This document shows, in pieces, positions 44,253 through 60,961 of a stretch of 64,000 bases of DNA (positions are counted from its first letter, which is position 1; the number at the start of each line of letters is the position of its first letter). The notes under the pieces were generated by a model. It saw only the letters and a program-made list of their open reading frames with translations. It was not told where the DNA came from and ran no database searches. The stretch is from Nannocystales bacterium (GTDB lineage Bacteria > Myxococcota_A > Polyangia > Nannocystales > Nannocystaceae), in assembly GCA_050633305.1 (NCBI GenBank), contig JBOEGF010000010.1, positions 544,001 through 608,000 on the forward strand. Reading direction: 5' to 3'. The translations under genes and the position numbers were made by a program.

Positions 44253-44471
44253 ATGAGCAAGAAAAAGCTGAAAGAACTGTTCATTGAGGATCTCGGCGAA
44301 GTCACCGGTGGCAAGGGCGGCATCCACACAACGCTCGCTGTGGGCGAAGAAGGCCCCTACCCCACGACGCTCGCTGTCGGCGAAGAAGACATCCTGACCA
44401 CGATGGCACTTGGCGAAGAACACGCGACCACCCTCGCGCTTGGCGAAGAAGGCGACTTCCCCAGCCTGTAG
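44253..44471 (+). CDS. psnA: Plesiocin-type graspetide (omega-ester peptide) precursor with four TTxxxxEE cores
   Basis: Leader LFIEDLGEVTGG; cores TTLAVGEE, TTLAVGEE, TTMALGEE and TTLALGEE; ATP-grasp ligase and PCAT genes nearby. Confidence 0.93.
   Translation: MSKKKLKELFIEDLGEVTGGKGGIHTTLAVGEEGPYPTTLAVGEEDILTTMALGEEHATTLALGEEGDFPSL
44328..44450 (+). repeat. Four 24-bp core repeats within the graspetide precursor
   Basis: Units at 44328-44351, 44364-44387, 44397-44420 and 44427-44450, each ending GGCGAAGAA. Confidence 0.9.
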
Positions 44472-44514
44472 CGGTTGGCGTTGGTGGCCGTGATGACGTC
44501 CTCCAACGCTCGCA

Positions 44515-44553
44515 AGAGGGCGGGCGAAGGCGTTGGCTTTCGCCCGCCTTCTC
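44515..44553. terminator. Stem-loop, probable bidirectional terminator between convergent genes
   Basis: GGCGGGCGAAGGC-GTTG-GCTTTCGCCCGCC: 13-bp stem with one G:U pair, between the precursor stop (44471) and the MFP stop (44557). Confidence 0.7.
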
Positions 44554-44556
44554 GTA

Positions 44557-45453
44557 TCAGCTTCGCGGCATTGCGAAGCGAACCTCGGCGACCGTCCCGA
44601 CGCGTAGCAGGTCTCGTTGAGTGTCGTCGAGCTTCAGACGGGCCTCTGCAAAGATCAGTCGGGTCCCCGCGTCGATCTCCGGTGCGACGGTCGTGACCGC
44701 AGTTGTCATATCGACATCCTCCGCCACGAAGCGAACCGTGACGACGGCACCCAGGACGAGCCCTGCGCTGTGCGCTTCGGGTACGGCGAAACGTATCAAG
44801 CGAGTATCAGAGATGATCTGGACGACGGGTTCCCCCGTGCCCAGAGTCGCTCCAGGGTCAGCATATCGGCGCGCCACCGTTCCGCTGAACGGCGCGCGGA
44901 GCTCGGCTTCGGCGATCCTTGCAGAGGCCTCGTCCATCTTGCTGCGCTGCTGACGAAGCGAGGCTCCGGCGCTGCGTTTCCTTGCGCTGGCGAGCTTCTC
45001 AGCGAACTGTCTCTCCCGAACCTCAGCCTTGGAAATGAACTTCTGGATCTGCTCGACGTCGGAGCGCGACGCCTCGGCTTGCTCGAGTTCCAGCGCAAGA
45101 CGGTCGAGGCTGGCCTTCGAGGCCCTCCACGCCGCAGTGGCAGCGACCAGCTCGCTCTTGTCGCCTCGCACGTCCATCTGCGCGATGAGGTCACCTTCGG
45201 CGACATGATCGCCGACTTGCAGATCGAGCCGCTGAAGCTTTGCGAAGCCAGAGGCAACCAAGACGACCTCCAACTCGGGGACCAGGACGCCCACCATCGG
45301 GCCGGACTCGGTCGCTTGCTCAACGGACTTCGTCGCCTCCTCCTGTGCGCTGGTGTCCTCGACGACGGGCGAGGTCGCCGCGGGGCTGCAGGCCGCCAGG
45401 GACATGGCGACAACGAGGCCGCATCGCAAGCTGGAGCCCATCCCCGCAGTCAT
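44557..45453 (-). CDS. Efflux periplasmic adaptor (MFP) lipoprotein, copy 1
   Basis: SLAAC lipobox; VGDHVAEGDLIA lipoyl half-motif; coiled coil; LRAPFSGTV; APEIDAGTR. ATGA overlap with PCAT 1. Confidence 0.88.
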   Translation of the reverse strand: MTAGMGSSLRCGLVVAMSLAACSPAATSPVVEDTSAQEEATKSVEQATESGPMVGVLVPELEVVLVASGFAKLQRLDLQVGDHVAEGDLIAQMDVRGDKSELVAATAAWRASKASLDRLALELEQAEASRSDVEQIQKFISKAEVRERQFAEKLASARKRSAGASLRQQRSKMDEASARIAEAELRAPFSGTVARRYADPGATLGTGEPVVQIISDTRLIRFAVPEAHSAGLVLGAVVTVRFVAEDVDMTTAVTTVAPEIDAGTRLIFAEARLKLDDTQRDLLRVGTVAEVRFAMPRS

Positions 45454-47654
45454 TGCGACTGCCTTTCGTACAGCTGGCGGTACACACTCGCTCCATCGAG
45501 CAGCTCGTGATGGGTCCCAGACTCGACGACCCGCCCCTTGTCCATCACGATGATCAGGTCGGCATCCACGACCGTGCTCAGCCTGTGGGCGATCACGATC
45601 CGCGTGCACTGCAGGCTTGCCAGTGAGCCTTGAATCGCGGCTTCCGTCACGCTGTCGAGGTTGCTCGTCGCTTCGTCGAGCAGAAGGATTGCGGGGTTGC
45701 CCGCGAGCGCACGTGCCAGGGCCAAGCGTTGTCGCTGTCCCCCGGAAAGGGATGCCGCTCCATCGGCGAGGATCGTCTCGTACCCCATCGGTAGAGCGTT
45801 GATCTCCTGATGGATGGCCGCCCGCATCGCCGCTTGGGCGACCTCGTCCATCGTCATCTCCGGGTTGCTCATCGCGATGTTGTCACGGACCGACATTCCG
45901 AAGAGTTCGCCCTGCTGTGTGACCACGCCCAGCTGCTCTCGCACGCTGCGAAGATCCAATGTGGACAGGTCGAGGCCGTCGTACATCACCCGGCCTTGCT
46001 GTGGTTGGTACAGACCGACCAGAAGCTTGGCCACCGTGCTCTTTCCCGCGCCCGAGGGCCCGACGATCGCGACGAACTGCCCGGGCTCGATCGTGACGGT
46101 GAGGTCTTGTACGGCGGGTGGTGTGGCCTCCGAGTAGCGGAACGTGGCTGCTACGGCTTGAATCTGCCCTGAGAGTCGCGGTGCGCGCTGGACCGCGCTC
46201 GCGTCCTGTTCAGGCTCCGTCTGCATCACGTCTTCAATGCGTTCGAGGTAGCTTCCGAGCACCTGGAACTGGAGGCTGACACCGACCATTGCGGATAGCG
46301 GGCCCAAGAAGCCTGCTCCCAGGGCTGAGAGTCCGAGCATAGCGCCCAGGGAAAGGGTGCCGTTGAGGACCAGGTTCGTGCCCACCGCGAGGATGACCAA
46401 CGGGGCCGCCATGCTGAAGGCGCCAAGCAACGAGGACACGAGCGCGTCGAGTTTTCCGCGACGCAACGAAACGTTGAGCGCATCGACGAAGAGGTTTGAC
46501 CACCGATCGACGGCCCGATACTCGGCGCCCATGGACTTGAGGCTCTCAATCCCTGTGAGCATCTCGACCTCGTAGCTGGACGTCTTGGCCTGCACGGCGA
46601 GGCTCTGTGTCATCAGATCTCGCTGCACGCGGCGCGTGGCCCAGTATAGCGACAGCTGGGCAGCGCCGAGAAGCAGGACGACCGCTCCCATCAACGGGCT
46701 CGCCCAGAAAATGAGCACCAGGTACAGGCTGACGAGCGACCCATCGAGCAACGCAGACATCGCACCTGAGGTGAGGATCTCCCGAACGGTCGCGTTGCTC
46801 CCCAGCCGCATGATCAGGTCGCCCGCAGAGCGGCGCTGGAAGAACGCGTAGGGAAGATCGATGAGGTGGTCGAGGAACCCAACCGTCATCTTCGCATCGA
46901 GCAACGTGCGCAGCTGCAGCAGCAGGTTGGCGCGGACGAGCGCGCTGATGAAGTTGAAGACCACCATCATGCTCAGGCCGGCCCCAAGCACGAGCAACAG
47001 GTCGACGTCGCGCCGTGGAATGATGCGATCGACCAGCAGAGTGGTCATCAGCGGCAGGCCCAGCGCGAGCAGCTGGACCAACACGGACATGACCAGCGAG
47101 CGGCTCCACAACTCGGGGTATGTGAGGACCTGTGCCATGTAGCGGCGGATCAGCGGGCGGCGACGAGATTCGGGCTCGAACGCCTCGCTGGGCTCCAGGA
47201 GGATGGCGACCCCCGTGAATGCTTCGTTGAACTCGGCCGCAGACACCCGTCGGCGTCCATGCGCGGGGTCCACGATGACGATCCCCCGCTTGTCGACCCG
47301 GTCGAAGACGACGAAGTGGTTGAACTCCCAATGGAGGATCGCGCCCGACGGGACAACATCGAGGTCTTCGACGTCTTCGACCTGAACGCCACGCCCGCGC
47401 AGGCCGTAGCTGCGGGAGGCGCGAATGATGCCCAGCGCGCTGACCCCGTTTTGGTCTGCACCCAGAGCGTCTCGTAGCTCGTCCAGGCCGGTCTCGTGGC
47501 CGTAGTAGCGCAGGACGATACTCAGACACGCAGCGCCGCAGTCCGCGGCCGTCATCTGCTGCACATGTTCCAGCTTGCGGCGGCGACCCAACATGCCCAG
47601 CCGCTGCAACGCCGGGAAACGACGCTTCAATGCGTGGTCGTGGTCGGTGCTCAT
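45450..47654 (-). CDS. Peptidase C39-containing ABC transporter (PCAT), copy 1
   Basis: QQMTAADCGAACL, HWEFNHFVV, DPAHG; TM domain; GPSGAGKST, LSGGQRQR, LLLDEATS and IAHRLST. Confidence 0.96.
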   Translation of the reverse strand: MSTDHDHALKRRFPALQRLGMLGRRRKLEHVQQMTAADCGAACLSIVLRYYGHETGLDELRDALGADQNGVSALGIIRASRSYGLRGRGVQVEDVEDLDVVPSGAILHWEFNHFVVFDRVDKRGIVIVDPAHGRRRVSAAEFNEAFTGVAILLEPSEAFEPESRRRPLIRRYMAQVLTYPELWSRSLVMSVLVQLLALGLPLMTTLLVDRIIPRRDVDLLLVLGAGLSMMVVFNFISALVRANLLLQLRTLLDAKMTVGFLDHLIDLPYAFFQRRSAGDLIMRLGSNATVREILTSGAMSALLDGSLVSLYLVLIFWASPLMGAVVLLLGAAQLSLYWATRRVQRDLMTQSLAVQAKTSSYEVEMLTGIESLKSMGAEYRAVDRWSNLFVDALNVSLRRGKLDALVSSLLGAFSMAAPLVILAVGTNLVLNGTLSLGAMLGLSALGAGFLGPLSAMVGVSLQFQVLGSYLERIEDVMQTEPEQDASAVQRAPRLSGQIQAVAATFRYSEATPPAVQDLTVTIEPGQFVAIVGPSGAGKSTVAKLLVGLYQPQQGRVMYDGLDLSTLDLRSVREQLGVVTQQGELFGMSVRDNIAMSNPEMTMDEVAQAAMRAAIHQEINALPMGYETILADGAASLSGGQRQRLALARALAGNPAILLLDEATSNLDSVTEAAIQGSLASLQCTRIVIAHRLSTVVDADLIIVMDKGRVVESGTHHELLDGASVYRQLYERQSQ

Positions 47655-48619
47655 AGCTCCTTGATGACGGGGACCAAGGTCTCCAAGAGGGTTTCGGATC
47701 GTAGCTTGGCCTCGAGTGTCCCCTGCATCCCATCGTAGACGCGATATTCGGTGCCGTCGGCCTCGAAGACGTCGGAGGGGAGCTCCGTTTCAACCACGAC
47801 CACCGGGCCATGCAGCTCCAACGCGCCTTCGCGGTCGCGACCGAGAAACCGCATCGCCTCGGCCGGGCCCACAACCTCGTCGGCTACAGAACGCACGAGG
47901 ACTTGTTGCCGGCTGTCGGAGAACCCCTCGAGTTCGAGATAGAACTGGGTGTCGGCGGCGCTGAGTAGAGGCCGGTAGTGCCCCGGGAACAAGGCCACGA
48001 TGACGGTGCTCGAGCTGTCTCGTTCGACCGAAACCACCGCATCGCCTGGGCCCACGGCTTGTCCGGGGTGGACTCTCACGTCCGAGACGACTCCGGGTTG
48101 CGGGGCGAGGATGGAACGCTCTTTGAGCCGAGCCTGTGCACGCTGAAGTTCGGCATCCAGCGCCGCCAAGCGCTCGCGGCGAACGTCCGCTTCGGGGAAA
48201 CGCAGGACCTCGACCAGACGCTGGTGGTGTTCGCGCCGAACTCGCTCAAGCTCCGCCCGTTGGGCCGCGTCATCGAGGCGAACGAGGACTTGTCCGGCCA
48301 CGACGCGCTGACCGTGTTCAACCTCGATGGTCTGTACAGTCCCGACGACCGCGGAGGTCGCGGCTTCGCGGCCGTCGCGTCGCAAGATGGCGACGCCCTG
48401 AGCGTACTCACCAACCCGGGCCGTCGCCGCGAACAGCATCGCCGCGAACGCGACCACCACCGTGACCACGACCGCCCACCGAGTCCATGTGGACACGATG
48501 TGCAGCGGTCGGCCCGGGCGAGCACCCATGCGGTGCGCCTTGAGGGCCTCCTCGCGGAACTGGATCCTGCGGGCCTGGGTCGGCCCGCTGGGTTGCTGCT
48601 GCTTGCTCGGCTCGCTCAC
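47651..48619 (-). CDS. HlyD-family secretion adaptor, copy 1
   Basis: FREEAL N-terminal motif typical of bacteriocin-associated HlyD; single TM; GQRVVAGQVL, ILAPQPGVV and GMQGTLE. Confidence 0.88.
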   Translation of the reverse strand: MSEPSKQQQPSGPTQARRIQFREEALKAHRMGARPGRPLHIVSTWTRWAVVVTVVVAFAAMLFAATARVGEYAQGVAILRRDGREAATSAVVGTVQTIEVEHGQRVVAGQVLVRLDDAAQRAELERVRREHHQRLVEVLRFPEADVRRERLAALDAELQRAQARLKERSILAPQPGVVSDVRVHPGQAVGPGDAVVSVERDSSSTVIVALFPGHYRPLLSAADTQFYLELEGFSDSRQQVLVRSVADEVVGPAEAMRFLGRDREGALELHGPVVVVETELPSDVFEADGTEYRVYDGMQGTLEAKLRSETLLETLVPVIKEL

Positions 48620-48646
48620 ACGGTCCCCTGCGTGGAATCTCCGCAG

Positions 48647-49588
48647 CTAGACTTTGCCCACGGCGTGGGAGGAGAGCGCATCGCACAAGGGACCGGTGAT
48701 GTCGACCCCGGCGCGGGCTTCGAATCCCAGGAACATGGGAGAGGGGTTCAACTCGAGGATCCGATAGCGGCCCTCGCGGTCGGCCTTGATGTCCATGCCC
48801 GTGAAGCGAAGGCCCAGGGTCGCCGTGGCGCGTCGGCACTGCGCCGCCACTTCGTCGCTGAGCTGGATCGCCTCGATCTTCTGCTCGTTTTGGCGGAAGT
48901 CGATCTCGTCGGTCACGATTCGCAGCGCGCAGATGACTTGGCCGTCGATGATGTACACGCGCACATCCTCGCCGGGGAGCAACTCCTGGAAGCACACCGG
49001 GGCGGACTCGAGCCGAGCGAGGCGTTCGTCGGTGAGGTGCTCGGGCTCGACCTTGCGCGTGGCCGCACCTCCGGTCACAGGCTTGTAGATCGCCTCGTGC
49101 TCGGCGCAGAAGCGCCGGACCGCAGCGGGGTCGTTGCTCCAAAGGGTAGCCGGAACGGGTAGCTCCGCCGCGTGCAGCAACGCCAGCTGGTACGGCTTCG
49201 TGATGTTGATGCTCGTCGAAGACGGGTTGTACAGAGCTGAACCTGCCAGCTCCCATCGGAGCAACATCGCGGCAAGCGGAGTGGAGCGCTCCCGGAAGGC
49301 AAGCATCGTGCGCCGCCAGTTCTCCTGCATCGCCTCGTCGGCTTCGACGCCGAAGCCGGCAGGGCTCTGATACAGACTGCGTACGTAGACAGCCGCGGGG
49401 CGGCCCAACGCTTGGCCGTCGAGCTCGACCGCCTCGTTGGCCTCGCCGAGCGATAGGGTCATTTCCTCGGGAAAACGCTGTGCATCGAGCACGAGCGGGT
49501 CAAGCCCGCGCTTTTGCAGTTCGTCGTGGACGGCACGCGCGTGCGCATCTTCGAGGGACCCGGCAATGACGATTGGGGGGGACGCCAC
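48647..49588 (-). CDS. psnB: ATP-grasp peptide macrocyclase (RimK-like graspetide synthetase, PsnB-type)
   Basis: KPYQL, VPATLWSND, IYKPVTGGA, FQELLPGEDVRV, DFRQ, GLRFTGMD and ILELNPSPMF; heads the export operon next to the TTxxxxEE precursor. GTG start inferred. Confidence 0.9.
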   Translation of the reverse strand: MASPPIVIAGSLEDAHARAVHDELQKRGLDPLVLDAQRFPEEMTLSLGEANEAVELDGQALGRPAAVYVRSLYQSPAGFGVEADEAMQENWRRTMLAFRERSTPLAAMLLRWELAGSALYNPSSTSINITKPYQLALLHAAELPVPATLWSNDPAAVRRFCAEHEAIYKPVTGGAATRKVEPEHLTDERLARLESAPVCFQELLPGEDVRVYIIDGQVICALRIVTDEIDFRQNEQKIEAIQLSDEVAAQCRRATATLGLRFTGMDIKADREGRYRILELNPSPMFLGFEARAGVDITGPLCDALSSHAVGKV

Positions 49589-49771
49589 GGCGGCACCGTA
49601 CCACCGGGAGCGAACGGCCCACGGGACTGCGACGAATCGGGATACCTGGCACACCCATCGCGAACCCGGGCCGAGTCACCCGGCGACAGAATGGGATGAC
49701 CCGAGGAAACGCAAAACGCGCCATCTCCCCACCACCCCATCCCGTCCCGCACGGCAGCCCCCGGATGCGCG

Positions 49772-51061
49772 CTACCCCTCGGGCGTGGTGCCGACCGAGA
49801 CGCTGCCGCCATCGGCGATCCACCGGAAGTTGTCCAGCAGCACGGTGGAGTCAAAGGCGGCATCGCCGGTGTCCCAGATCGCGAACCGGATGGTCAGTTC
49901 CTGCCCACCAGTCACCGGGGCGGTGGTGACCAGCCAGCTCGTTGCGCCTGCGTCATTCCACACGTCGAACCCAGTGCCCGCTAGCTCTGCTGTCCCCAGA
50001 GGGCATCCCGCGCAGACCTCGAAGAACGCGATGTTGACGCTCACCGGGTTGGTCATGCTGTCGAACGAAATGTTCCCATTGATGGCCCCCTCGGGAGCAG
50101 GTGTGACGTGGGCGATGTACTGGTCGTTGTACGAGTCGCAGACCCACTCGGGATATTCGAACGAGTAGAAGTTGAAGTTGTACGAGAACCCCGTCGCGTT
50201 TGTCGGGGTACGTAGGGTGACCTCGAGAGCGACATCGTCGTTGATGTCGGATTCTCCAGGGCACTGGGGCACGTCCTGCGGGAATCCCGGTGGTGGTGTG
50301 CCCGGGCCGAAGCCAAAGCAGGTCTGCGAACCGCAGGCATCGGGCTGGCCGGGAGTCCGAGCGTTCCCGGTCGAGAGAACCAACATCTGGCTTCCTTCTT
50401 GGGGGGCGACGTTGGGTCCGAAGTCGAACGACAAACCCGTTTGTGCGGACGCCCCTGCCACCGGGGTCCCATTGGCGCGAACGTACTGCGCATTGATGAT
50501 GCCCCAGTCCGTATCGTCCGCGGCGACCTTGCACAGTCCCATCGCACCCGCTCCCGAGAGGGGGTCTGCGTCGTTGAGCACGTATGCGCCGTCGCAGGCC
50601 GGAGGTATGTTGTCGACTCCGCCATCGCAGTCCTCATCGGCCGGGCTCGGGACCATGCCCATCTCATCGGGCTCGAGGTCGATGACTTCGATCGCACCCG
50701 GGTTGACGTTGGCATCGCAGTCGTTACAGTCGCCGTCGAGCACCGTGAAACCGTCGCCGTCGAGGTCTTCCATGGGCCCGGACTTGCAGCTGTCCTCGGT
50801 TCCGCCGCTGTCGTTCCCGGGCTCGAAGCCCACGTCCCACTTGATGTCGTCGGTCGGTTGCCCGCCGCCACTGGAGTCCGTCTGGCCGCCGTCCGTCGCG
50901 GTCGCCTCGTCGTCACTGGTCTCACTGGGGTCCTCCGCGTCGATGCCCCCAGTGGCGGTCAGACTGCTCGCGGAGTCAAATGGATCGTCGTCCTGTCGGG
51001 TGGAGTCGCAGCCCGGCAGTGCCAGCACGGTACAGAAAGCCGTCAGTATTCGGTGGTCCAT
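49772..51061 (-). CDS. Lipoprotein with MopE-like metal-binding motif and choice-of-anchor L-like domain
   Basis: LALPGC lipobox; DLDGDGF...DCND.DANVNPGA.E...DEDCDG; VLSTG, FYSFEYPEWV...YND and IRFAIWDTGD..FDSTVLLDNF. Confidence 0.8.
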   Translation of the reverse strand: MDHRILTAFCTVLALPGCDSTRQDDDPFDSASSLTATGGIDAEDPSETSDDEATATDGGQTDSSGGGQPTDDIKWDVGFEPGNDSGGTEDSCKSGPMEDLDGDGFTVLDGDCNDCDANVNPGAIEVIDLEPDEMGMVPSPADEDCDGGVDNIPPACDGAYVLNDADPLSGAGAMGLCKVAADDTDWGIINAQYVRANGTPVAGASAQTGLSFDFGPNVAPQEGSQMLVLSTGNARTPGQPDACGSQTCFGFGPGTPPPGFPQDVPQCPGESDINDDVALEVTLRTPTNATGFSYNFNFYSFEYPEWVCDSYNDQYIAHVTPAPEGAINGNISFDSMTNPVSVNIAFFEVCAGCPLGTAELAGTGFDVWNDAGATSWLVTTAPVTGGQELTIRFAIWDTGDAAFDSTVLLDNFRWIADGGSVSVGTTPEG

Positions 51062-51192
51062 CGCTCCAGTGTCCTCTCGGCCGCGGGTCGTCCGGCCAGC
51101 GGCCCCAGATTGTTGCACGCTTTGGGCCGAGCTCGCCCCGAGGCCGTCGATGAACTGCTGTAAACGCCGAAGGCCTGCCCTCGCGTGACGGA

Positions 51193-51696
51193 CTACCCAC
51201 ACTGGCCGAGCGCCGGCGCCTGGAAGGTGTCGGACGTCTGACCGCTCGGGAAACATGGTACCCAGCCCGTAGGAGGGATGCAGCGTCTTCCGGTCGCGTA
51301 GGCGGAACGAAGATCTTGGCTGCATAGGAACGACTCTTCCTTACAGACCGAGAACTGTCCGCATCCGAGGAAGGTCGGTTCGGCCGAGCAGTCGACGTCG
51401 GAGTCAGTGGTGCAGCGCGTGACGAGATGGCCGTAGACGGCCGAGCACCCCTCGGCTTCACACTGGTCCTCGGTTCGACCGCTGCAGGAGATCGGCTCGG
51501 GGACCCCGCCGACGGTGACCTCCTCGAACTCGCACGTGCTCGCGGGGAGGTCTGCGTGTGGGGCCACGTCTGCGCGCGCGGATACGTCCGTGGTTTCTGC
51601 AACGTCGTCTTGGAGTGCAGTCTCGTCCGATGCGCAGCCCGCAGCAGTGAGCAAGCGGACCAAGCTCAGCGTTGTGACAACCCGCGTCCACGCCAT
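51193..51696 (-). CDS. Small Cys-rich lipoprotein
   Basis: LTAAGC lipobox; more than ten Cys in the mature part. Confidence 0.65.
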   Translation of the reverse strand: MAWTRVVTTLSLVRLLTAAGCASDETALQDDVAETTDVSARADVAPHADLPASTCEFEEVTVGGVPEPISCSGRTEDQCEAEGCSAVYGHLVTRCTTDSDVDCSAEPTFLGCGQFSVCKEESFLCSQDLRSAYATGRRCIPPTGWVPCFPSGQTSDTFQAPALGQCG

Positions 51697-51760
51697 CCGC
51701 GGAGGGTAGCAGTCCCGAGCTTGCCAGCGGCAGGGGGCCGTGCCGGTGCGCGTGCGGGAG

Positions 51761-52654: not shown

Positions 52655-54855
52655 TCGACGTTCCTCTCGTACAGCCGGCGATAGACGGACCCTGTGCGCA
52701 GGAGTTCGCGGTGTGTCCCCATTTCGACGACCTCTCCGCGTTCCATCACCAGGATTAGATCCGCGTTGAGGACAGTGCTCAGTCGGTGGGCGATGACGAC
52801 CCGGGTGCACTCGAGGGCGGCAAGCGAGCGCTCGATGGCGGCCTCGGTCACCGTGTCGAGGTTGCTTGTCGCCTCGTCGAGCAGCAGGGTCGCGGGTTTG
52901 CTGGCCAACGCTCGTGCGAGGGCGATTCGCTGACGTTGCCCACCGGACATCGAGGCGCCTCCGTCGGCCAGAATCGTTTCGTAGCCCATCGGGAGAGCGA
53001 CGATGTCGTCGTGGATCGCTGCGCGTTTGCAGGCGTCCGTGACCGCCTCCAGCGTCAATCCGGGCTGCCCCAGCGCGACGTTTTCCCTCACAGACATCGC
53101 GAAGAGATCCGTACGTTGCGTGACGACGCCGAGTTGTTCTCTGACGCTTCGAAGCTCGAGCCCCGCGAGGTCGATACCGTCGTACAGCACCCGACCTGCA
53201 GTCGGTGGGTATAGTCCGACCAGCAGCTTGGCCAGCGTGCTCTTTCCGGCGCCCGAGGCGCCGACGACCGCGACACACTGCCCGGGCTTGATCTCGACCG
53301 ACACCTCTCTCACCGCCATCGGCGTCGCCTCGCTGTACCGGTACGAGACATACTCGGCCTTGATGGCCCCGGTCAGTCTCGGCGCCCGAGTGACCTTCGC
53401 CGGGTCTTGCTCGGTCTCGGTCTGCATCACGTCCTCGATCCGCTCGAGGTACGAACCCAGCAACTGGAACTTGAAACTCACCCGGACCAGCGCACCCAGG
53501 GGGGTGAGGAACGCCGCGCCCAACGCAGAGACGCCCAGCATCACGCCGAGGGTCAAGCCCCCGTCGAATACCATTTTGGCGCCTGTGCCAAGGATGATCA
53601 GCGGGGCTGCCATGCCGAACGTGCTCAACAATGAGTTGACCACAGCATCCAGTCGTCCACGCCGCAGTGAGACGTTGAGACTATCGATGAAGAGGTTGGA
53701 CCACCGTGCAACCGCTCGAGATTCGGCGCCGATGCACTTGAGCGTCTCGATGCCCGTGAGCATCTCGACCTCGTAGCCCGACGTCTTTGCCTGGCAGGCC
53801 AGGCTCTCGCTCATCAGCTCGCGTTGGAGGCGGCGGGTTGCCCAGTACAGCGAGACCTGGACGGCCGCCAGGGCGACAACGACTGTCGCCATCGGTGGGC
53901 ATGCCCAGAACAGCAGGCCCAGATAGAGGGTGACGAGGGCCCCGTCGAGCACGGCCGACATTGCGCCTGATGTGAGGATCTCGCGGACGGTGGCATTGCT
54001 GCCCAATCGCAGCAGCAAGTCGCCGGCCGAGCGCCGTTGAAAGAATGAGAACGGGAGGTCGATCAGGTGGTCGAGAAAGCCCACCGTCATTCTTGCGTCG
54101 AGTAGGGCGCGGAGCTGCAGGAGCAGGTTGGCCCGAACGAGTGCGCTGACGAAGTTGAAAGCGACCATCAGGGTCAAGCCCACGGCCAGCACGGAAAGAA
54201 GGTCGGTGTCGCGCCGTGGAAGGATGCGGTCGACGAGCAAGGTCGTCATGAGCGGCAAAGCCAGCGCAAGGACCTGGAGGAGCAACGACATCATGACGGA
54301 GCGGCCCCACAGGTCGGGATAGGCCTTGAGGTGCGCGAAGTACCGTTGCAGGAGAGGGCGCCGGCGCACACCGGGCTCGAAGGTCTCTCCGGGCTCGAGC
54401 AACAGCGCCACCCCCGTGAACGCTCCGTCGAACTCCGCTCGGGAGACTCGGCGTTGGCCGTGGGCGGGATCGAGGATGGTCACGTCACCCCGCCGGCCGA
54501 CCCGTTCGAAGACGACGAAGTGGTTGAAGTCCCAGTGCAGGATTGTCCCGGCGGGGATCAGATCGAGCTCTTCGAGGCGTTCGAGCTGCACGCCTCGCCC
54601 GCGCAGGCCGTAGCGGCGAGCAGCTGCGAGGATCCCTTGCGCACTCACGCCGTTTTGGTCGGCTCCGGTTGAGTCGCGGACTTCGTCGAGCGGAGTCTCG
54701 CGTCCGTAGTAGCGTAGGACCATCGCGAGGCAGGCGGCGCCGCAGTCCGTGGCCGTCAGCTGCTGCACGCGCTCCAGCCGACGCTTGGATGAACGCCCGA
54801 GTCGGTTCAGGGCGGGAAAGCGGGACGCGAGCGCATGTTCGGGGGCGGAGTTCAT
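52651..54855 (-). CDS. Peptidase C39-containing ABC transporter (PCAT), copy 2
   Basis: QQLTATDCGAACL, HWDFNHFVV, DPAHG, GASGAGKST, MSGGQRQR and LLLDEATS. The ATG at 54855 gives the same length (734 aa) as copy 1. Confidence 0.96.
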   Translation of the reverse strand: MNSAPEHALASRFPALNRLGRSSKRRLERVQQLTATDCGAACLAMVLRYYGRETPLDEVRDSTGADQNGVSAQGILAAARRYGLRGRGVQLERLEELDLIPAGTILHWDFNHFVVFERVGRRGDVTILDPAHGQRRVSRAEFDGAFTGVALLLEPGETFEPGVRRRPLLQRYFAHLKAYPDLWGRSVMMSLLLQVLALALPLMTTLLVDRILPRRDTDLLSVLAVGLTLMVAFNFVSALVRANLLLQLRALLDARMTVGFLDHLIDLPFSFFQRRSAGDLLLRLGSNATVREILTSGAMSAVLDGALVTLYLGLLFWACPPMATVVVALAAVQVSLYWATRRLQRELMSESLACQAKTSGYEVEMLTGIETLKCIGAESRAVARWSNLFIDSLNVSLRRGRLDAVVNSLLSTFGMAAPLIILGTGAKMVFDGGLTLGVMLGVSALGAAFLTPLGALVRVSFKFQLLGSYLERIEDVMQTETEQDPAKVTRAPRLTGAIKAEYVSYRYSEATPMAVREVSVEIKPGQCVAVVGASGAGKSTLAKLLVGLYPPTAGRVLYDGIDLAGLELRSVREQLGVVTQRTDLFAMSVRENVALGQPGLTLEAVTDACKRAAIHDDIVALPMGYETILADGGASMSGGQRQRIALARALASKPATLLLDEATSNLDTVTEAAIERSLAALECTRVVIAHRLSTVLNADLILVMERGEVVEMGTHRELLRTGSVYRRLYERNVE

Positions 54856-55787
54856 CGATCCTCGAATCTGGGCAGGAGGGTCTCCAGGAGCGTCTCGGAG
54901 CGCAGCTTGGCTTCGAGTGTCCCTTGCATGCCGTCGTAGAGTTCGTAGTAGGTGTTGTCGGCGGCGAAGGTGCGGGTGAGCATCTCGGTCTCGACCACGA
55001 CGACCGGACCTCGCAGATCCATCGCCCCTTCGCGGTCGGGGCCGAGGTAGCGCATTGCCTCTGTGGGGCCCACGACCTCGTCCGCAATCGAGCGCACTCT
55101 GACCGCATGACGCTCCTCGGGGAAGCCCTCGAGTTCCAAGAATAGGGTGCTTTCGTCGGCGCTCAACAGGGGGCGGGTTCGCCCAGGGAAGAGCCCGATG
55201 ATCACCGTACGAGAATCGTCGTCGTCGAGAGACACGATGGCGTTGCCGGGGGCCACCGCTTGGCCCGGACGCACGCGGACGTCGGAGACACGCCCTGCCC
55301 GAGGCGCACGCACCGAGCGCTCGTTCAGCTTGGCGCGTGCAAGCTGGAGTCGAGTGTCGACCGCCGCGAGTCGCTCGTTTCGGGCACCGTCCGAGGGGTC
55401 GCGTAGCAACTCGACCAGGCGCTGCTGGTGCTCTCGGTCGACACGGCCCAGCTCGGCGACCTGCGTAGCGTTGTCCAACGTTGCCAAAACCTCGCCTTCG
55501 TGGACCCACTGCCCAGGTCGAACATCGATGCTCTGTATCGTCCCCGCGACGGCCGAGCTGACCACGCTACGTCCCTCGCGACGGACCACCGCGATGCCCT
55601 GAGCGTACTCACCCACCTGAGCGGTCGCGGCGAAACCAAGCCCCGCCAGGACCGCGAGCACCGACACCCGTGTCGCCCACCGGGCCCACGACGAGGCGAT
55701 GTTGAGTGGTCGCCCCGAACGCGCTCCCCGGCGGTGCGCCTCCAGGGCCGCGTTGCGGAATCGAGGGCCTCGGCCGTGGCTGCTCAC
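54852..55787 (-). CDS. HlyD-family secretion adaptor, copy 2
   Basis: FRNAAL, VGEYAQG, GLFPG, ELEGF, DEVVGP and DGMQGTLEAKLRSETLLETL are shared with copy 1. Confidence 0.88.
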   Translation of the reverse strand: MSSHGRGPRFRNAALEAHRRGARSGRPLNIASSWARWATRVSVLAVLAGLGFAATAQVGEYAQGIAVVRREGRSVVSSAVAGTIQSIDVRPGQWVHEGEVLATLDNATQVAELGRVDREHQQRLVELLRDPSDGARNERLAAVDTRLQLARAKLNERSVRAPRAGRVSDVRVRPGQAVAPGNAIVSLDDDDSRTVIIGLFPGRTRPLLSADESTLFLELEGFPEERHAVRVRSIADEVVGPTEAMRYLGPDREGAMDLRGPVVVVETEMLTRTFAADNTYYELYDGMQGTLEAKLRSETLLETLLPRFEDR

Positions 55788-55880
55788 GCGGACCTCTTGG
55801 TGTGGGACGAGCGGGGCATGCTTTCCTACTCCCTCCGCGGCGGACGACGGAGTTCTGACGAACCTGATCTGAGAAAGTTG

Positions 55881-56981
55881 CTACCAGACCAAGTCGGGCA
55901 TGAAATCCTCATGGACGAGTGTCAACACGCGGTGGGCCCCGCTACCGGGCCGTAGGTGCTTGGCAAGGTCGCAGGCGAGCTGGGGCAGGGCCGCTCGGAG
56001 GCTTTGGGCCCGTGTGCGGCAGTTGTCCTGCTCTTGGGTCGTGAGGGCGTCGGTACGGAGCAGTGCCTGGTGTAGCTGGATCACGCAGCGGTAGATCACC
56101 AGCGCCTGGAGCATCGTCACCAGGGGTCGCATCTGGCCGGAAATGGGGGAGCGCAGGCTCGGTCCCCACCGCGGTAGGCCACACGGCGGGCAGAGTTCCC
56201 ACCAGAGCCACATGCGCTGGTGCAGATACTCGTGCAACAGCCCCTCGCACAAGGCAGGCACTCCAACGGAGAAGGGATTGACGAAGACCGCTCCGGGCAG
56301 GCGTAGGCGCAGGTTGAAACTCCAGTGCGCTTGGGGCAGAGGCTGCCCTTGTTCGTGGGGAACGGGGGGCAGCAGTGCGGTTGTGGTGATGGTGCGCTCA
56401 AAGTCGGCGAACACCACCTGGTCGACTCGGGACAGCAGAGCCCGTGCTCGCTCGTATTGCCGCAGGGCGTGCGCCGAGCAACCCGGCTTGGCCGACATTG
56501 CGTACACCGGAGGAAACGGAAGGTCTGCGAACAGCCCGGGGATGGGGAAATACACAACGTGTCCCCCGGCGGACCTGCGATGGGCATCGAGGGCGATGAC
56601 CTCCCCGCCGCGGCGCTCGACCACACCGTGGCCCAGGTGGGGCAGGCGGTAGATTCCGCTCTCAATGCCCGGGCCACTGGGGGATACGCCTCCGCTCAGC
56701 ACGTCGAGTCGATGCAGCAGTTGAGTTGCCGTATCCAGGTCGGGGCACCGATCGCCCAGACAGACGAGGGGCGCATGGATTTCGGGGGAGTTCCCCAACG
56801 CCCGACTCAGGTCCCCAAGGCGTGCCTCGAGCGCGTCGAGCTGCGTGTCCAGGGCCCGCAGGGAGGCGTTCTTACGGCGACTGTTGCGAAGCAACCGCCG
56901 CGGCAGGCTCGAGCGGGCCTGTAGCTGCTGCTCGGCGTTGATCGGGGCCAGGACATCGATCAAGGATTGGACGCGGAACAC
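55881..56981 (-). CDS. HEXXH-motif RiPP-associated protein (putative alphaKG/Fe-dependent peptide beta-hydroxylase)
   Basis: PGAVFV...LCEGLLHEYLHQRM...SPISGQMRPLVTMLQAL resembles RiPP HEXXH domains; GGAGG 8 nt upstream of GTG 56981; overlaps the LanB stop. Confidence 0.72.
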   Translation of the reverse strand: MFRVQSLIDVLAPINAEQQLQARSSLPRRLLRNSRRKNASLRALDTQLDALEARLGDLSRALGNSPEIHAPLVCLGDRCPDLDTATQLLHRLDVLSGGVSPSGPGIESGIYRLPHLGHGVVERRGGEVIALDAHRRSAGGHVVYFPIPGLFADLPFPPVYAMSAKPGCSAHALRQYERARALLSRVDQVVFADFERTITTTALLPPVPHEQGQPLPQAHWSFNLRLRLPGAVFVNPFSVGVPALCEGLLHEYLHQRMWLWWELCPPCGLPRWGPSLRSPISGQMRPLVTMLQALVIYRCVIQLHQALLRTDALTTQEQDNCRTRAQSLRAALPQLACDLAKHLRPGSGAHRVLTLVHEDFMPDLVW

Positions 56982-59632
56982 GTCGCCGACCTCCAGGCGG
57001 TGGTTCGGCCGGCCTCCTGGGGGACGTGGCGCCATCTCTCCAGAAGGTTGCGGGCGAACAGGAGCGCCCAGGCTTCCTCGGCGCGGTTGTGACGGAAGTG
57101 CAACCGTGTGCCGGTCATGTGGACGACCGATCTCAGGTGCTTGCACAAGCGAAGGCGATTGTCCTGCCCAAGCCACGCGCTCAGGTGGTGGGCGCGTTGT
57201 ACGAGCGCAGCGTGCATGGTCTCGTCACCGTCTCCAACTGCCGTGCTCACCAAGGCCCGACGGCGAGCTCTCCACATGTTTCCGACCGCGCGGCGGTCAT
57301 CGGTCGAGTAGCCGAACTCCGCGCAAAATGAGTCGAAAGCACGGCGGCAGAAGGCGTGCTGCGCATCGGGGGAGAGTCCCGCGTAGTCCAAGGTCTGAAG
57401 GATCGCAAGCGCGTACAAGTTGGTGCGCCGGTCGTCCATCAGCGGAAGGCCACTGCAAGCGTCGTAGAGGCTGGCCGAGTCCGCGACGAACAGCGCCTCG
57501 ACCGCCTCGATGTCCGCGGCACCGCCGTAGCGGTCCCACTCACGCACGTAGGGTTCGACCGCAAAGTGCCGAACGATTCGTTGGTCGAGCATGACGTCGA
57601 GCCGCTCCATGAGAGCGTGCATGACCGCGGGCTGCCCCGCAGGGATGCGTAGGCGTAGCTCGCTCTCGACCTCATCGGAGAGGAACACGTAGAAGAACTG
57701 GACCTCGCCGAGGCTCTCGCGAAGCTCGCGAAGGACTGTGGGCATGCGCTCCGACAGCGCGCTTACTCGAAGGGTTCGGTACGGGCCGAGCAGGGCACCG
57801 GGGGCAGGACGAGGAACTTTGGGGACCCGCAGCCGCTTGGCCACGGACCCGAACGTGACGGGGAGCAGGGCGTGGGCAGCGTGGCCCCGACCGTCAATGA
57901 CAAGGTCTACGGAGGGCAGCCGCTCGGAGACCGCGAGGCGCTGCTGCCGACGAAGCCGCTTGAAGAGGTCTCGTCGTGCCGCGCAGTCGACAGCGGGGTC
58001 AAGGGGCAGCGCGCCACTGCTCGAGTCTACGGTGACCTCGCAGTCGGCCAACCCGACCCGTTCCAGCCATGTCGGCAGCGTGTCTTCGGTGAGCTCCGCT
58101 GGTACGGGGGCCCGACGTCGACACAACACGTGCCCACCGTAGGTGATACGTGGCCGAACCGGGAGTCCCTTGAACGCTACGTCGAGAAGACTGCGACCCG
58201 GGCGTTCTGCGGTTGCAGCTCGAGACAGAAGACGAACCAGTGGGTGCAGTGCCCGGTTGGAGTCGTCGTACGGCACTGGCCGCACGATCCTCAGCTGGCG
58301 TTGCTCCTCACGGGTGCGCACCAGCAGCCTATCCCCGGTCGCGCTGACTTCGAGGTCCTCGAGACGAAGGGTCCGTTGTGAGTCGCTGGCTCGGCCGCAG
58401 TATTCCAGCGCGAGAACCCCTGGGACACGGACGTCTGCGATCTTGTCGAGTACGCCCGGACCTCGGTACGCGAGCATGACCGTCTCGGTCCCTTCCTCGT
58501 CCAACCCTGGCAGGCGCTCCGCGAGCCCCGGCAAGTCGTAGCGGCCGATCAGCTCCCGCGGGTGGGCGGAGAACAAGGCCGGGCCCACCAGGCGACCGTC
58601 GGCACTCCATCGAGTGCCGAGCAACATGACGCCCGACCACGACGATGCGGGCAAGGGGGCGTCGGTGAGGTCGATGGACGACTCGAACGCACGAGCTCGC
58701 AGCCAACGCACGAATGGCTCGTCTGCAGCGGCGACCTCGAACTCGGGGTTGTCCGCTCGCTCCAGCAGACCTTCAGCCATCCGCTCGAGTTCAGGCATGG
58801 GGAGCCACCGCCCGTCGAGGCGCTTGTCGAGCAGGCGCTGGAGGACTGGGGGCTCGGACCGTGTGCACCGCAGCAGCACCTCCGCTACCTCCTGCACATC
58901 AGCGAGGGCTGCGGGCATGCGTACCGGCCGGGCGAAGGTGGCGAACGCGTTGGTCGGCGTCTCGGTTGCATCTTGACGGGCGGTGACCTCTGCGACGGCC
59001 TCGCCGAGCGACTCTACGTTCGGCCTGGCCTCGTCGTTCCACAGTGAGCATGCACCTGGGGGCTCGAGGACCCCCATGTCGAGAAGTCGGTCGAGTAGAG
59101 CGCGAACACGATCAGCTGGAATCCCTTCTGTTTGCAGGCAAGTTTCCCACTCGATGCGAGTCCCGCCGCGCTGGCGCAGCAATGCCTCGCGAAGGCCCTT
59201 CGGTAGGCCCAGCCGTTTGGCATGGAACACGTCCGCGGCGACGTCGCGTTGGTAGACGGTGACGGCATCCGCGTGGAACACCGCGCTGGTGGAGACCGCC
59301 AGGGTTTCGGGATGCTTGCCGGGCAGCCGGGCCCCGAGCGGGTGACTGCGCTGCACTCGAACGTCGCTCAGCGACGGTTCGCCTCCGGCGGGTGTCGCGA
59401 TCGCGGCCGCGGCGAACAGGCTGCGAGGGATCGAGCGTGAGCGGGCACGGGCTTCGTACAGCGCCCGAACTGCCGGAAGCTCGCCGCGCTGGATCTGGGC
59501 GGGAAGGTCAGGGTTGGACGACGCGACCGCAATCGCCGCGAGGAACCGTTGTCGTTCGTCCTCGGGCGCGCCATCCCACGAGAAGTCGCTCGGGAACAGG
59601 GACGTTCGCAATACACACCAGTCGACGCTCAT
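56960..59632 (-). CDS. lanB: Class I lanthipeptide dehydratase (LanB-like: glutamylation + elimination domains), divergent
   Basis: VLRT, FLAAIAVAS, YEARARSRSIPRSLFA (cf. YxxRxxxRxTPFGLF), PRITYGGHVL, ELRLR, YVREWDRYGG..IEAVEALFVADS and SVVHMTGTRL. Confidence 0.8.
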   Translation of the reverse strand: MSVDWCVLRTSLFPSDFSWDGAPEDERQRFLAAIAVASSNPDLPAQIQRGELPAVRALYEARARSRSIPRSLFAAAAIATPAGGEPSLSDVRVQRSHPLGARLPGKHPETLAVSTSAVFHADAVTVYQRDVAADVFHAKRLGLPKGLREALLRQRGGTRIEWETCLQTEGIPADRVRALLDRLLDMGVLEPPGACSLWNDEARPNVESLGEAVAEVTARQDATETPTNAFATFARPVRMPAALADVQEVAEVLLRCTRSEPPVLQRLLDKRLDGRWLPMPELERMAEGLLERADNPEFEVAAADEPFVRWLRARAFESSIDLTDAPLPASSWSGVMLLGTRWSADGRLVGPALFSAHPRELIGRYDLPGLAERLPGLDEEGTETVMLAYRGPGVLDKIADVRVPGVLALEYCGRASDSQRTLRLEDLEVSATGDRLLVRTREEQRQLRIVRPVPYDDSNRALHPLVRLLSRAATAERPGRSLLDVAFKGLPVRPRITYGGHVLCRRRAPVPAELTEDTLPTWLERVGLADCEVTVDSSSGALPLDPAVDCAARRDLFKRLRRQQRLAVSERLPSVDLVIDGRGHAAHALLPVTFGSVAKRLRVPKVPRPAPGALLGPYRTLRVSALSERMPTVLRELRESLGEVQFFYVFLSDEVESELRLRIPAGQPAVMHALMERLDVMLDQRIVRHFAVEPYVREWDRYGGAADIEAVEALFVADSASLYDACSGLPLMDDRRTNLYALAILQTLDYAGLSPDAQHAFCRRAFDSFCAEFGYSTDDRRAVGNMWRARRRALVSTAVGDGDETMHAALVQRAHHLSAWLGQDNRLRLCKHLRSVVHMTGTRLHFRHNRAEEAWALLFARNLLERWRHVPQEAGRTTAWRSATCSASNP

Positions 59633-60690
59633 GATGACCTCTTCGGGTAGGGGGGGGAAGGGGGTTCTCGTGGCCGCAGCGGCGGGGGGAGGAACAGATC
59701 GAGGGCGCGGGAGGAGGGCTCCTCCGCGTGCAGCGCAGGCAAGCAGCTGGGTAGGCCAGACAAGGGCCGCAACATGTCGTGGGCGAGTCGTGACGGCACT
59801 CTCGCCCACAGACGGAGGAGGGTGTCCTCGGCCTCGGTCGCCCGGGGTCGGATCCCCGACCGCAAGAACCGGGAGACCACCATCGCCCGCCCTGCGTGGC
59901 CGCAGCAGAACCCAAGGTTCATCTCGCTCTCGTCGGCACTGGCGGCCAGTGCCTTCTGGGCGATGTCCAAGTACGCATCGCAGTCCAACCGAATGGCTGC
60001 TTCGAGATAGACCAGCGCGTGGCCAACGCTTCCGCTGCAGAGGCTGGAGGCCACCCAGGAGTGGTGGACCGGTTGCCCTTCTCGCACGGGCCAGCGCGCG
60101 CACCCGTCATCCTCGGTTCGCAGCCCTGCCAACCAGTCCAGGCCTCGGCGTACCCGATCTCCTTCGACCGGCGAGGGCTCGTTGAGCAACAGCGCGCGAA
60201 AGAGCAGACCTGCGACACCGTGGGCAAACCCCAGCGGCAAGGCCCGGCCGCTCTTTCGGCCGCGCTCGAAGTGGAGGAACTCTTGGTGAATGAAGTCAGC
60301 CCACCCAGGCGGGTCCGGGGAATCGCTGGCCAAGTACACGGGGCCGTCGTTGGCAAAGGTATCGAAGCCCAGCGCACGTGCCGGCGGTGCGAAGTCCTTG
60401 CCGTCCACGCCGCTGAGGCGTCGTTCGGCCCACCTTCGCCCACGAGTTCCGTACAGGAACGAGCCTCGAACCTCGACTGGGACGTCAGGCTCAGGTGCAT
60501 CCAGACTTCGCCAGCGGACGGCGGCTTGCCTCAGATCGAGAACGCTCGCGCCCGCGGTCTGTTCGAGGCATTGTTGCACGAACAAGAGGCCAGGCCAGCC
60601 GCTGCAGATTGTAGGGCCGCCGATCTCGGCGGTCGTCGCATTGCGACAGCGGTCGAGGACCGCCATGAAGGCGTCGGTACGGAGGTTCAT
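59629..60690 (-). CDS. lanC: Lanthionine synthetase C-like cyclase with CCG zinc motif
   Basis: SGWPGLL, FLYGTRG, LGFAHGVAG, RWP, SLCSGSVG and LGFCCGHAG LanC repeats; ATGA overlap with LanB. Confidence 0.85.
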   Translation of the reverse strand: MNLRTDAFMAVLDRCRNATTAEIGGPTICSGWPGLLFVQQCLEQTAGASVLDLRQAAVRWRSLDAPEPDVPVEVRGSFLYGTRGRRWAERRLSGVDGKDFAPPARALGFDTFANDGPVYLASDSPDPPGWADFIHQEFLHFERGRKSGRALPLGFAHGVAGLLFRALLLNEPSPVEGDRVRRGLDWLAGLRTEDDGCARWPVREGQPVHHSWVASSLCSGSVGHALVYLEAAIRLDCDAYLDIAQKALAASADESEMNLGFCCGHAGRAMVVSRFLRSGIRPRATEAEDTLLRLWARVPSRLAHDMLRPLSGLPSCLPALHAEEPSSRALDLFLPPPLRPREPPSPPYPKRSS

Positions 60691-60754
60691 CGCTTGCTCG
60701 TGAACCGGGCCGGTGGCGCAAGGGGGGACCCGCGCCACCGTCCCGAAGGACGTC

Positions 60755-60961
60755 CTACCAGTCGCCCCAGGGGTGGGTGGAGTCGGTGCAGGAGGGGTCG
60801 CCGGGCTTGCACTTCTTCGCGACGGGGGCCGGTGCCGGTGTTGCGCCGGTGTCAGCGGTGCCTCCGTTTGTTCCACCGAGCACGAGGCCAAGGTCCTCCT
60901 CGGTGATGCCGTCGATCAGGTCGTTCAGAGAGCGTTTGTCGTTGTGGGTCTTGCCAAACAT
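60755..60961 (-). CDS. lanA: Putative lanthipeptide precursor with double-glycine leader
   Basis: Leader ends ITEEDLGLVLGG; core TNGGTADTGATPAPAPVAKKCKPGDPSCTDSTHPWGDW (6 Thr, 2 Ser, 2 Cys); directly upstream of lanC on the same strand. Confidence 0.82.
   Translation of the reverse strand: MFGKTHNDKRSLNDLIDGITEEDLGLVLGGTNGGTADTGATPAPAPVAKKCKPGDPSCTDSTHPWGDW

Follow-up and report, generated by a model that had tools for sequence, protein, structure and literature searches.

The locus

We analysed a stretch of DNA of 64,000 nucleotides (the window) from a Nannocystales bacterium (NCBI GenBank assembly GCA_050633305.1, contig JBOEGF010000010.1, positions 544,001 to 608,000), and in particular a region of it that is bracketed by two precursor genes for peptides that are ribosomally synthesized and then post-translationally modified (RiPPs). 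One precursor belongs to the graspetides (precursor G), the other to the lanthipeptides (precursor L). Between them lie two homologous export triads, G and L, each consisting of a peptidase-containing ABC transporter (PCAT) and two adaptor proteins. An initial annotation had described both precursors and both triads, which are indeed present, and had read them as the outcome of a duplicated leader and exporter, with possible cross-talk between the two pathways. The features of the region are as follows (window positions).

44253..44471, plus strand: plesiocin-type (group 2) graspetide precursor, 72 aa, leader ending in LFIEDLGEVTGG, then KGG and four TTxxxxEE repeats
44515..44552, no strand assigned: 17-bp hairpin separating the precursor gene from the exporter genes convergent to it, probably a terminator for both (z=-6.8 for 44470-44560)
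44557..45453, minus strand: triad G periplasmic adaptor of the resistance-nodulation-division (RND) type (TIGR01730, 96.1 bits against a cut-off of 94.9)
45450..47654, minus strand: triad G PCAT (C39 peptidase and ABC transporter), catalytic Cys/His/Asp intact
47651..48619, minus strand: triad G HlyD-like adaptor (PF13437)
48647..49654, minus strand: ATP-grasp ligase, PsnB orthologue (longest open reading frame; true start probably near 49588)
49772..51325, minus strand: choice-of-anchor L surface protein, an unrelated spacer gene (NF038133 above cut-off)
51193..51696, minus strand: Cys-rich putative exported protein of 167 aa, a spacer gene (no family matched)
51761..52654, minus strand: triad L RND-type periplasmic adaptor (TIGR01730 above cut-off)
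52651..54855, minus strand: PCAT of triad L, on a long branch within the plesiocin clade, with the catalytic Cys/His/Asp intact
54852..55787, minus strand: triad L HlyD-like adaptor (PF13437)
55881..56981, minus strand: HExxH protein with the fold of ChlH, an alpha-ketoglutarate-dependent HExxH (aKG-HExxH) oxygenase; HEYLH kept, Gln at the further ChlH His
56960..59632, minus strand: shortened, divergent full-length LanB dehydratase, 890 aa (profile, model and fold comparison)
59629..60690, minus strand: LanC cyclase with GFAHG, the first zinc-site Cys, and CCG replacing CHG (PF05147, 41.7 bits against a cut-off of 23.2)
60707..60745, minus strand: hairpin between precursor and lanC, weakly indicated as a possible transcript-ratio element (z=-2.1)
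60755..60961, minus strand: lanthipeptide precursor, 68 aa, double-glycine leader ending in ITEEDLGLVLGG, then TNGG

Read from 60961 along the minus strand, precursor L is followed by LanC, LanB, the HExxH gene, triad L, the Cys-rich gene, the choice-of-anchor L gene, the ligase and triad G. The 12 genes from the lanthipeptide precursor through triad G all share one strand. Precursor G lies on the plus strand beyond the 17-bp hairpin, convergent to triad G.

Two RiPP pathways of different kinds

By its sequence, the left cluster counts among the ordinary graspetide clusters of the plesiocin type. Its ligase matches PsnB (7DRM) with an E-value of 1.6e-128 and keeps Y171, R181, R192, L196, V201, F203 and R213 of the Phe pocket, with I193 replaced by Leu (residues mapped by eye on alignments, with a 20-residue tag offset). 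The PsnB study names these pocket residues and makes leader binding depend mainly on Phe15 of LFIEDL (10.1101/2021.03.09.434688). Like the plesiocin precursor PsnA2, precursor G has an LFIEDL leader, here with four TTxxxxEE repeats and no Cys, and it has many relatives with the same leader type. A published account lists C39 transporters as common in graspetide loci (PMC8939145). The only departure is the downstream, convergent position of the precursor, a layout also found in G045 among the fetched loci. The ligase would bind LFIEDL through the Phe pocket and close Thr-Glu ester rings across the four repeats. Judging from the orthology with PsnB, the triad G PCAT would then cleave after GG and export a plesiocin-like protease inhibitor.

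Ligase matches at E<=1e-30 occur in 23 of 72 genomes of the bacterial family, the same set as in our order-level search; the count includes this genome and one match only 32% identical. None of the six other genomes of this genus has such a match. The genome carries a second graspetide cluster (L009:8558-14616, G000 C14) with a ligase, a short precursor with a TTSCSCGG core and its own triad; similar precursors occur in L124, L125, L127 and L128.

The right cluster is, from its gene content, a rare class I lanthipeptide cassette, composed of precursor, CCG-type LanC, shortened and divergent LanB, and HExxH protein. Neither the HExxH gene nor the oddities of LanB and LanC had been noticed in the initial annotation. 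We found ten precursors of this kind, including that of the window, which is the only one found in its genome. All ten consist of a double-glycine leader, a variable Ala/Pro linker and a conserved core of the form C-K-x4-[ST]-C-T-D-x-T-x-P-x-G-[DE]-W. Ala-Pro, Cys-Lys, [ST]-Cys-Thr-Asp-x-Thr, Pro, Gly and Trp are invariant, so that two Cys, three Ser/Thr and the Asp are conserved in 10 of 10 cores. The linker, with zero to four Ser/Thr, would be a spacer, perhaps trimmed later.

LanC scores above the PF05147 cut-off and keeps H157, C218 and C262, with Cys263 in the place of the third zinc ligand in all three LanCs. One study assigns such a three-Cys CCG site to ProcM-type LanMs and links it with substrate tolerance in LanM enzymes (PMC10027976). 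The motif is common to the window LanC and the ProcM/SyncM cyclases, but the latter are class II LanM enzymes with many precursors, whereas the window has a stand-alone LanC. We infer two thioether rings among C21, C28 and S27, T29 and T32, in a pattern that is not predictable. LanB would glutamylate and eliminate the three conserved Ser/Thr (S27, T29, T32) beside the two Cys, the three-Cys LanC would close the rings from C21 and C28, and the triad L PCAT would remove the leader.

Out of 1.84 billion representatives, a search with a LanB profile found four at E<=1e-30; the one after these reached 3e-22. The model (100-row alignment, pLDDT 91, pTM 0.87) matches MadB, MibB and NisB over the full length (Foldseek E 3e-32 to MadB), and residues 3-593 superpose on TbtB with Z 18.9 and an rmsd of 4.7 over 548 aligned residues. 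R9, Y59, R62, R66, R364, R660/R662, R701, H838 and R843 are kept in 7 of 7 members. These columns match NisB R14, Y80, R83, R87, R464, R784/R786, R826, H961 and R966, where the correspondence to H961 rests on a 99%-conserved His column and not on an alignment displaying NisB. The system thus shares with NisB/NisC, MibB and MadB a full-length LanB with glutamylation and elimination parts, the catalytic His motif of LanC, and a core of Cys and Ser/Thr. It differs in that LanB has 890 residues, about 140 below the canonical median of 1029, and is 12-18% identical to solved LanBs; LanC has CCG instead of Cys-His; the leader is of the double-glycine type and comes with a PCAT, not an S8 protease; and an HExxH gene is added. 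PF04738 has no match in the window copy of LanB.

The model of the HExxH protein matches ChlH (E 3e-8), and its top Foldseek matches are 8S5F and SjiH. HEY[LIV]H is present in 9 of 9 members. Fold and motif are thus common with the aKG-HExxH oxygenases (ChlH, PflC/PosC, PesO). Unlike these, the window protein stands alone and is paired with LanB and LanC, and the ChlH stretch SPWREDLRP..LLHA reads SP[IV]SGxxRP..MLQA in its family, with Gln for His in 7 of the 9 members. According to two papers, known aKG-HExxH members act by hydroxylation of Asp, His, Gln, Phe or Pro, or else by cleavage of the backbone in front of Ala (PMC12636437, PMC13060819); a third (PMC12707348) was of no further help on the metal ligands. 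The most likely role of the HExxH protein is an oxidative modification, for example beta-hydroxylation of the invariant Asp30, which would be the likeliest site. Two farther relatives (P0167 and P0168, 37% identity) also have Gln at the ChlH His position, and a last profile search for HExxH relatives gave no additions.

The cassette without its neighbours

LanC was found in 3 of the 72 family genomes and in 3 of 400 sampled genomes of the class, this genome counted. Genomic linkage could be read for 3 of the 10 precursors. In both other genomes, G047 and G049, precursor, LanC, LanB and HExxH gene follow in the same order as in the window. In G047 a P450 gene comes after the HExxH gene and no triad lies within about 10 kb on either side; this cassette lies well inside a contig of 758 kb. 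The G049 copy is divided between two contig ends, and unrelated genes on the opposite strand follow. The initial annotation had proposed looking for linkage of the two clusters in other genomes. They are unlinked in both, the plesiocin ligases being on contigs other than the cassette's. Conversely, none of 17 plesiocin-clade triad loci (5-20 kb) contained cassette genes. Alignment searches with LanB in genome contigs yielded 2 loci from 202 pattern matches, and with the HExxH protein in metagenome contigs 2 short fragments from 312 pattern matches.

Both genomes have three C39 genes each, the plesiocin one and two others, none of them in the cassette. As all ten precursors retain a GG leader, processing by a PCAT in trans is the simplest reading for these two genomes. 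One C39 gene of G047 lies 17 kb from the cassette as part of a divergent two-ABC system, where no precursor was found. At L143:4424-10631 an HlyD gene and two divergent ABC genes, one with C39 and an acidic insert, lie beside an AurF-like diiron oxygenase; no precursor was found near this ABC system. The cytochrome P450 of G047 (L006:6275-7696) occupies the position of the window's triad. Since the lanthipeptide precursor of G047 has Tyr and Trp in its tail, this P450 may be a further tailoring enzyme.

The export triads

The two PCATs are 71% identical (519/733), their C39 domains 92/129, and the adaptors 61% (190/311) and 52% (150/291); the DNA of the triads is 68.8% identical over 3977 columns. 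Both PCATs combine C39, ABC membrane and ATPase domains and keep the Cys, His and Asp of LahT. They nest in the plesiocin clade, where each is closer to a plesiocin PCAT of another genome (82% and 78%) than to its neighbour. With the three proteins concatenated, a tree of 14 rows, selected because their triads are complete, groups triad L with the plesiocin triad of G045 (97/96) and triad G with that of G047 (95/93), and the approximately unbiased (AU) test rejects the two triads as sisters (p=0.005). A PCAT-only tree had 20 rows, and a tree of 41 rows was a quick version. The proposal of a duplicated exporter chassis survives in part: the triads do belong to one clade and are fitted to different modifying enzymes, but they did not arise by local duplication according to the concatenated tree. 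Triad L is apparently a fast-evolving plesiocin-clade exporter of another lineage.

The clade serves a third kind of pathway as well. In genus g14 and in G023 a further member lies beside small precursors with the leader LGADELCQVTGG, and matches above cut-off to TIGR04192 and TIGR04193 mark the locus of this type that we scanned as a grasp-with-SPASM cluster. These leaders have Cys at position -6. From the tree and the loci, the triad is a reusable module that serves three RiPP types, and the leader did not travel along with it. The grasp-with-SPASM cluster at L068:11824-15196 (also L069, L070 and L071) has up to four tandem LGADELCQVTGG precursors and a plesiocin-clade triad; L068 has an additional erythromycin-esterase-like gene.

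Several other PCAT loci came to light. In this genome, L010:6971-14044 (G000 C39) is a RiPP cluster of no assigned class with a PCAT triad, a Gly/Lys/Glu-rich GG precursor and two large family-less genes between them, and L011:6527-13782 (G000 C14) has a PCAT triad, a four-Cys precursor with a GA site and two genes with no Pfam or NCBIfam match; three precursors similar to the latter occur in G047 (L142:5204-6003). In G049, a seven-residue Cys/Asn/Tyr unit recurs about nine times in a GG precursor adjoining a PCAT (L147:2202-2480), and a second GG precursor, in which SECG/ASEC units are repeated, lies some 7 kb away from a PCAT triad (L076:1447-1635).

How special is the shared leader?

The two precursors of the window had been said to share an EDLGxVxGG leader continued by a second GG. 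The match is real, 7 of 12 positions being identical, but by itself the pair would not stand out from the ordinary background of double-glycine leaders. We placed the pair among 20 PCAT-associated leader families of this bacterial family, one hand-picked leader each, drawn from 40 further PCAT loci and the earlier ones after leaving out orthologues, one duplicate family and implausible precursors. At least 7 of 12 identities are reached by 19 of the 189 other pairs (mean 4.7), and the BLOSUM score of the window pair by 23, in a background whose filter favoured the motif and so raised similarity at -12, -7, -4 and GG. The pair thus stands in about the top tenth of its background. One of the genome's unlinked precursors (LTIEDLASVRCG, with EDL as the anchor of the alignment) likewise agrees with the plesiocin leader at 7 of 12 positions; an additional leader from G049, outside the 189-pair count, also gives 7 of 12 by eye. 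Of the seven residues in common, five occur often in the background; among 18 other families, D(-8) recurs in 4 and G(-6) in 2.

The second GG was rejected as a shared element, as it lies in the core and its spacing is not kept in the other nine lanthipeptide precursors. A duplicated leader is not supported by the precursor family. Position -8 is Ala in seven, Ser in two and Asp in one of the ten precursors; that one is the window's, and its codon is one base from an Ala codon. The family has E-x-L-G-x-V-x-G-G in genomes without an adjacent plesiocin cluster. C39 domains read hydrophobic residues at -12, -7 and -4 together with GG; at -8, Ala, Lys or Asp is accepted by LahT150 (PMC6363468). 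The leaders would resemble each other since any C39 substrate must. In our reading of the alignments the likeness is mostly the generic double-glycine export signal, and a mild residual signal stays.

Cross-cleavage of both leaders by either PCAT, which the initial annotation had thought possible, is plausible but unremarkable, as both leaders carry the hydrophobic residues at -12, -7 and -4 that C39 domains read. LahT150 and other tolerant PCATs cleave leaders across RiPP classes by these positions and GG (PMC6363468, PMC10885120). This tolerance is not universal; NukT is described as selective (PMC10885120). A predicted complex of the triad G C39 domain with residues 1-45 of precursor L scored 0.33, against 0.01 for the best control. 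Contacts agreed between runs to at least 83%, the partner had a pLDDT of 51-53, and a like complex has been solved. Of 157 solved pairs 116 attained the mark, as did 2 of 215 mismatched pairs; those attaining it at 0.60 or less were 18 of the solved pairs and both mismatched ones. As weak evidence, the prediction would add little to the case for cross-cleavage.

Hybrid modification, the other part of that suggestion, is unlikely from the sequences, because precursor L has neither the Phe that the ligase requires nor a TTxxxxEE core. Thr or Ser stands at -11, the position of the ligase-binding Phe, in 10 of 10 lanthipeptide precursors (Thr in the window), and TTxxxxEE occurs in 0 of 10 cores. 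We considered the Thr residues of the linker as graspetide donors and rejected them because they are not conserved. In the other direction, precursor G has no Cys and therefore cannot be cyclised by LanC. LanB could at most dehydrate it, and nothing suggests that it binds. In vitro, each PCAT would probably cleave both leaders, with the modifying enzymes remaining orthogonal.

Weighing the explanations

We think it probable, though by no means assured, that the window holds two independent, adjoining RiPP pathways, each with its own plesiocin-clade exporter, and that the lanthipeptide cassette recruited its triad from another lineage. The cassette, normally without an adjacent exporter, would have gained the triad from another plesiocin-clade lineage, and fast divergence would have followed.

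Several observations weigh against this explanation. The context of the cassette was seen in only two other genomes, of which G049 is fragmented (870 contigs). The HExxH protein reaches 29.3 bits against a TIGR04267 cut-off of 40 (its orthologues 33.4 and 33.5). The LLHA His of ChlH, which we take to be the third iron ligand, a role unconfirmed in the literature consulted, is Gln in the window protein and in the 7 members mentioned, and His in 2 of 9. In LanB the column of NisB Thr89 holds Ile in the window (Ile, Val, Ser or Thr in the family), and Asp121 and Asp299 have no clear counterparts. Either of the two enzymes may be impaired or have another function. The PCAT-only tree does not reject triad sisterhood (p=0.093), and triad L sits on a branch of 0.50 compared with 0.05 for its sister, in a placement flagged as unsure. 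Finally, Gly(-6) is invariant in both precursor families, yet rare in the background, and plesiocin and lanthipeptide leaders agree at the family level in 5-8 of 12 positions, mostly 6-7, above the background mean.

These last points bear on a second explanation, which we regard as unlikely. The lanthipeptide leader would be tuned to plesiocin-clade PCATs and processed by them in trans elsewhere, and here both PCATs would handle both leaders. This overlaps with the explanation we prefer but makes the leader likeness functional. All three cassette genomes hold a plesiocin ligase, against 23 of 72 in the family; this co-occurrence is weak, however, as two of the three are from one genus, in which the ligase is found in 4 of 6 genomes. 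G047 and G049 lack a C39 gene in the cassette, but have other PCATs that might serve, one of G047's being the gene 17 kb away. The triad recruited here is of exactly the plesiocin clade, and everything from precursor L to triad G is on one strand. Every one of the ten lanthipeptide precursors has GG and Gly(-6), and the leader of one of them, P0159, agrees with the commonest plesiocin leader in 8 of 12 positions. Against a role for Gly(-6), position -6 is not among the residues found to matter for LahT150 (PMC6363468), and the plesiocin-clade triad also serves the leaders with Cys there. The predicted C39 complex may lend slight support.

A bolder form of this idea, to which we give a shade less credit, holds that the cassette represents an undescribed lanthipeptide family. 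Its leader would be tuned to one PCAT clade, it would export its product in trans without a transporter of its own, and it would have captured its own copy here. Three-Cys LanC and HExxH protein with His-His-Gln would form a new scaffold. The HExxH protein would either hydroxylate the invariant Asp between the rings or, like PflC/PosC, cleave oxidatively at the invariant Ala-Pro and so free the bicyclic core from the variable linker. In the literature searched (mostly open-access papers), HExxH proteins came up with lanthipeptide LanBs only in a reference list, myxobacterial class I systems led to nothing related, and no title on cross-talk between graspetides and lanthipeptides concerned such a pair.

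Decay of the cassette or of the HExxH gene, which would leave a product without modification or with a disulfide link and would trace the long triad L branch to relaxed selection, is improbable. The short LanB without Thr89 and without a PF04738 match, the His-to-Gln change and the long branch would fit decay. However, no frame is broken, distant members share 50-63% identity, the catalytic columns of LanB are kept in 7 of 7, and Gln is common to 7 of 9 HExxH members. The NisB changes T89A, D121A and D299A caused only a mild drop of activity in vivo, though loss in another study (PMC4341554, PMC7296275).

Least credible, and in our view very improbable, is an in-place duplication of leader and exporter that gave rise to a conserved super-cluster with hybrid graspetide-lanthipeptide modification: adjacency, homologous triads, the 7/12 leader identity and the link between CCG cyclases and tolerance in LanM enzymes (PMC10027976) speak for it, but the clusters are unlinked elsewhere, triad sisterhood is rejected, precursor L lacks the ligase-binding Phe and the TTxxxxEE motif, and precursor G lacks the Cys for cyclisation by LanC. 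The super-cluster idea reduces to a generic export signal and a juxtaposition in one genome.

Surroundings of the clusters

The two spacer genes (49772-51696) separate the clusters and lie on the same strand. The choice-of-anchor L gene has 8 paralogous matches in the same genome and, unlike the RiPP genes, is shared with genomes of the same genus: a DNA search of six of them found no usable synteny and matched this gene alone, over about 1 kb at about 70%, in 3 of 6. GC content and GC content at third codon positions (GC3) mark no island along the window, and promoter and terminator scans of the window stayed at chance level. Contigs from the sequencing run cover 29 of 30 window bins in short pieces, none of them across the junctions, and so neither confirm nor question the assembly. 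A membrane protein at 41658-43661 is weakly like terminal arabinofuranosyltransferases (NF041481, far under the cut-off).

What the finding means

That C39 domains cleave leaders across RiPP classes is already established for LahT150, and the shared leader as first described matters little. The novelty of the locus lies in the rare lanthipeptide cassette and the apparent borrowing of an exporter. The cassette is worth pursuing: it is a compact pathway of four genes, three of which encode unusual enzymes, and its reactive residues are marked by ten precursor variants from nature. It may extend aKG-HExxH chemistry to lanthipeptides. The plesiocin-clade triad, spread across three RiPP types, would be a clean natural case of an export module that moves between pathways and then diverges.

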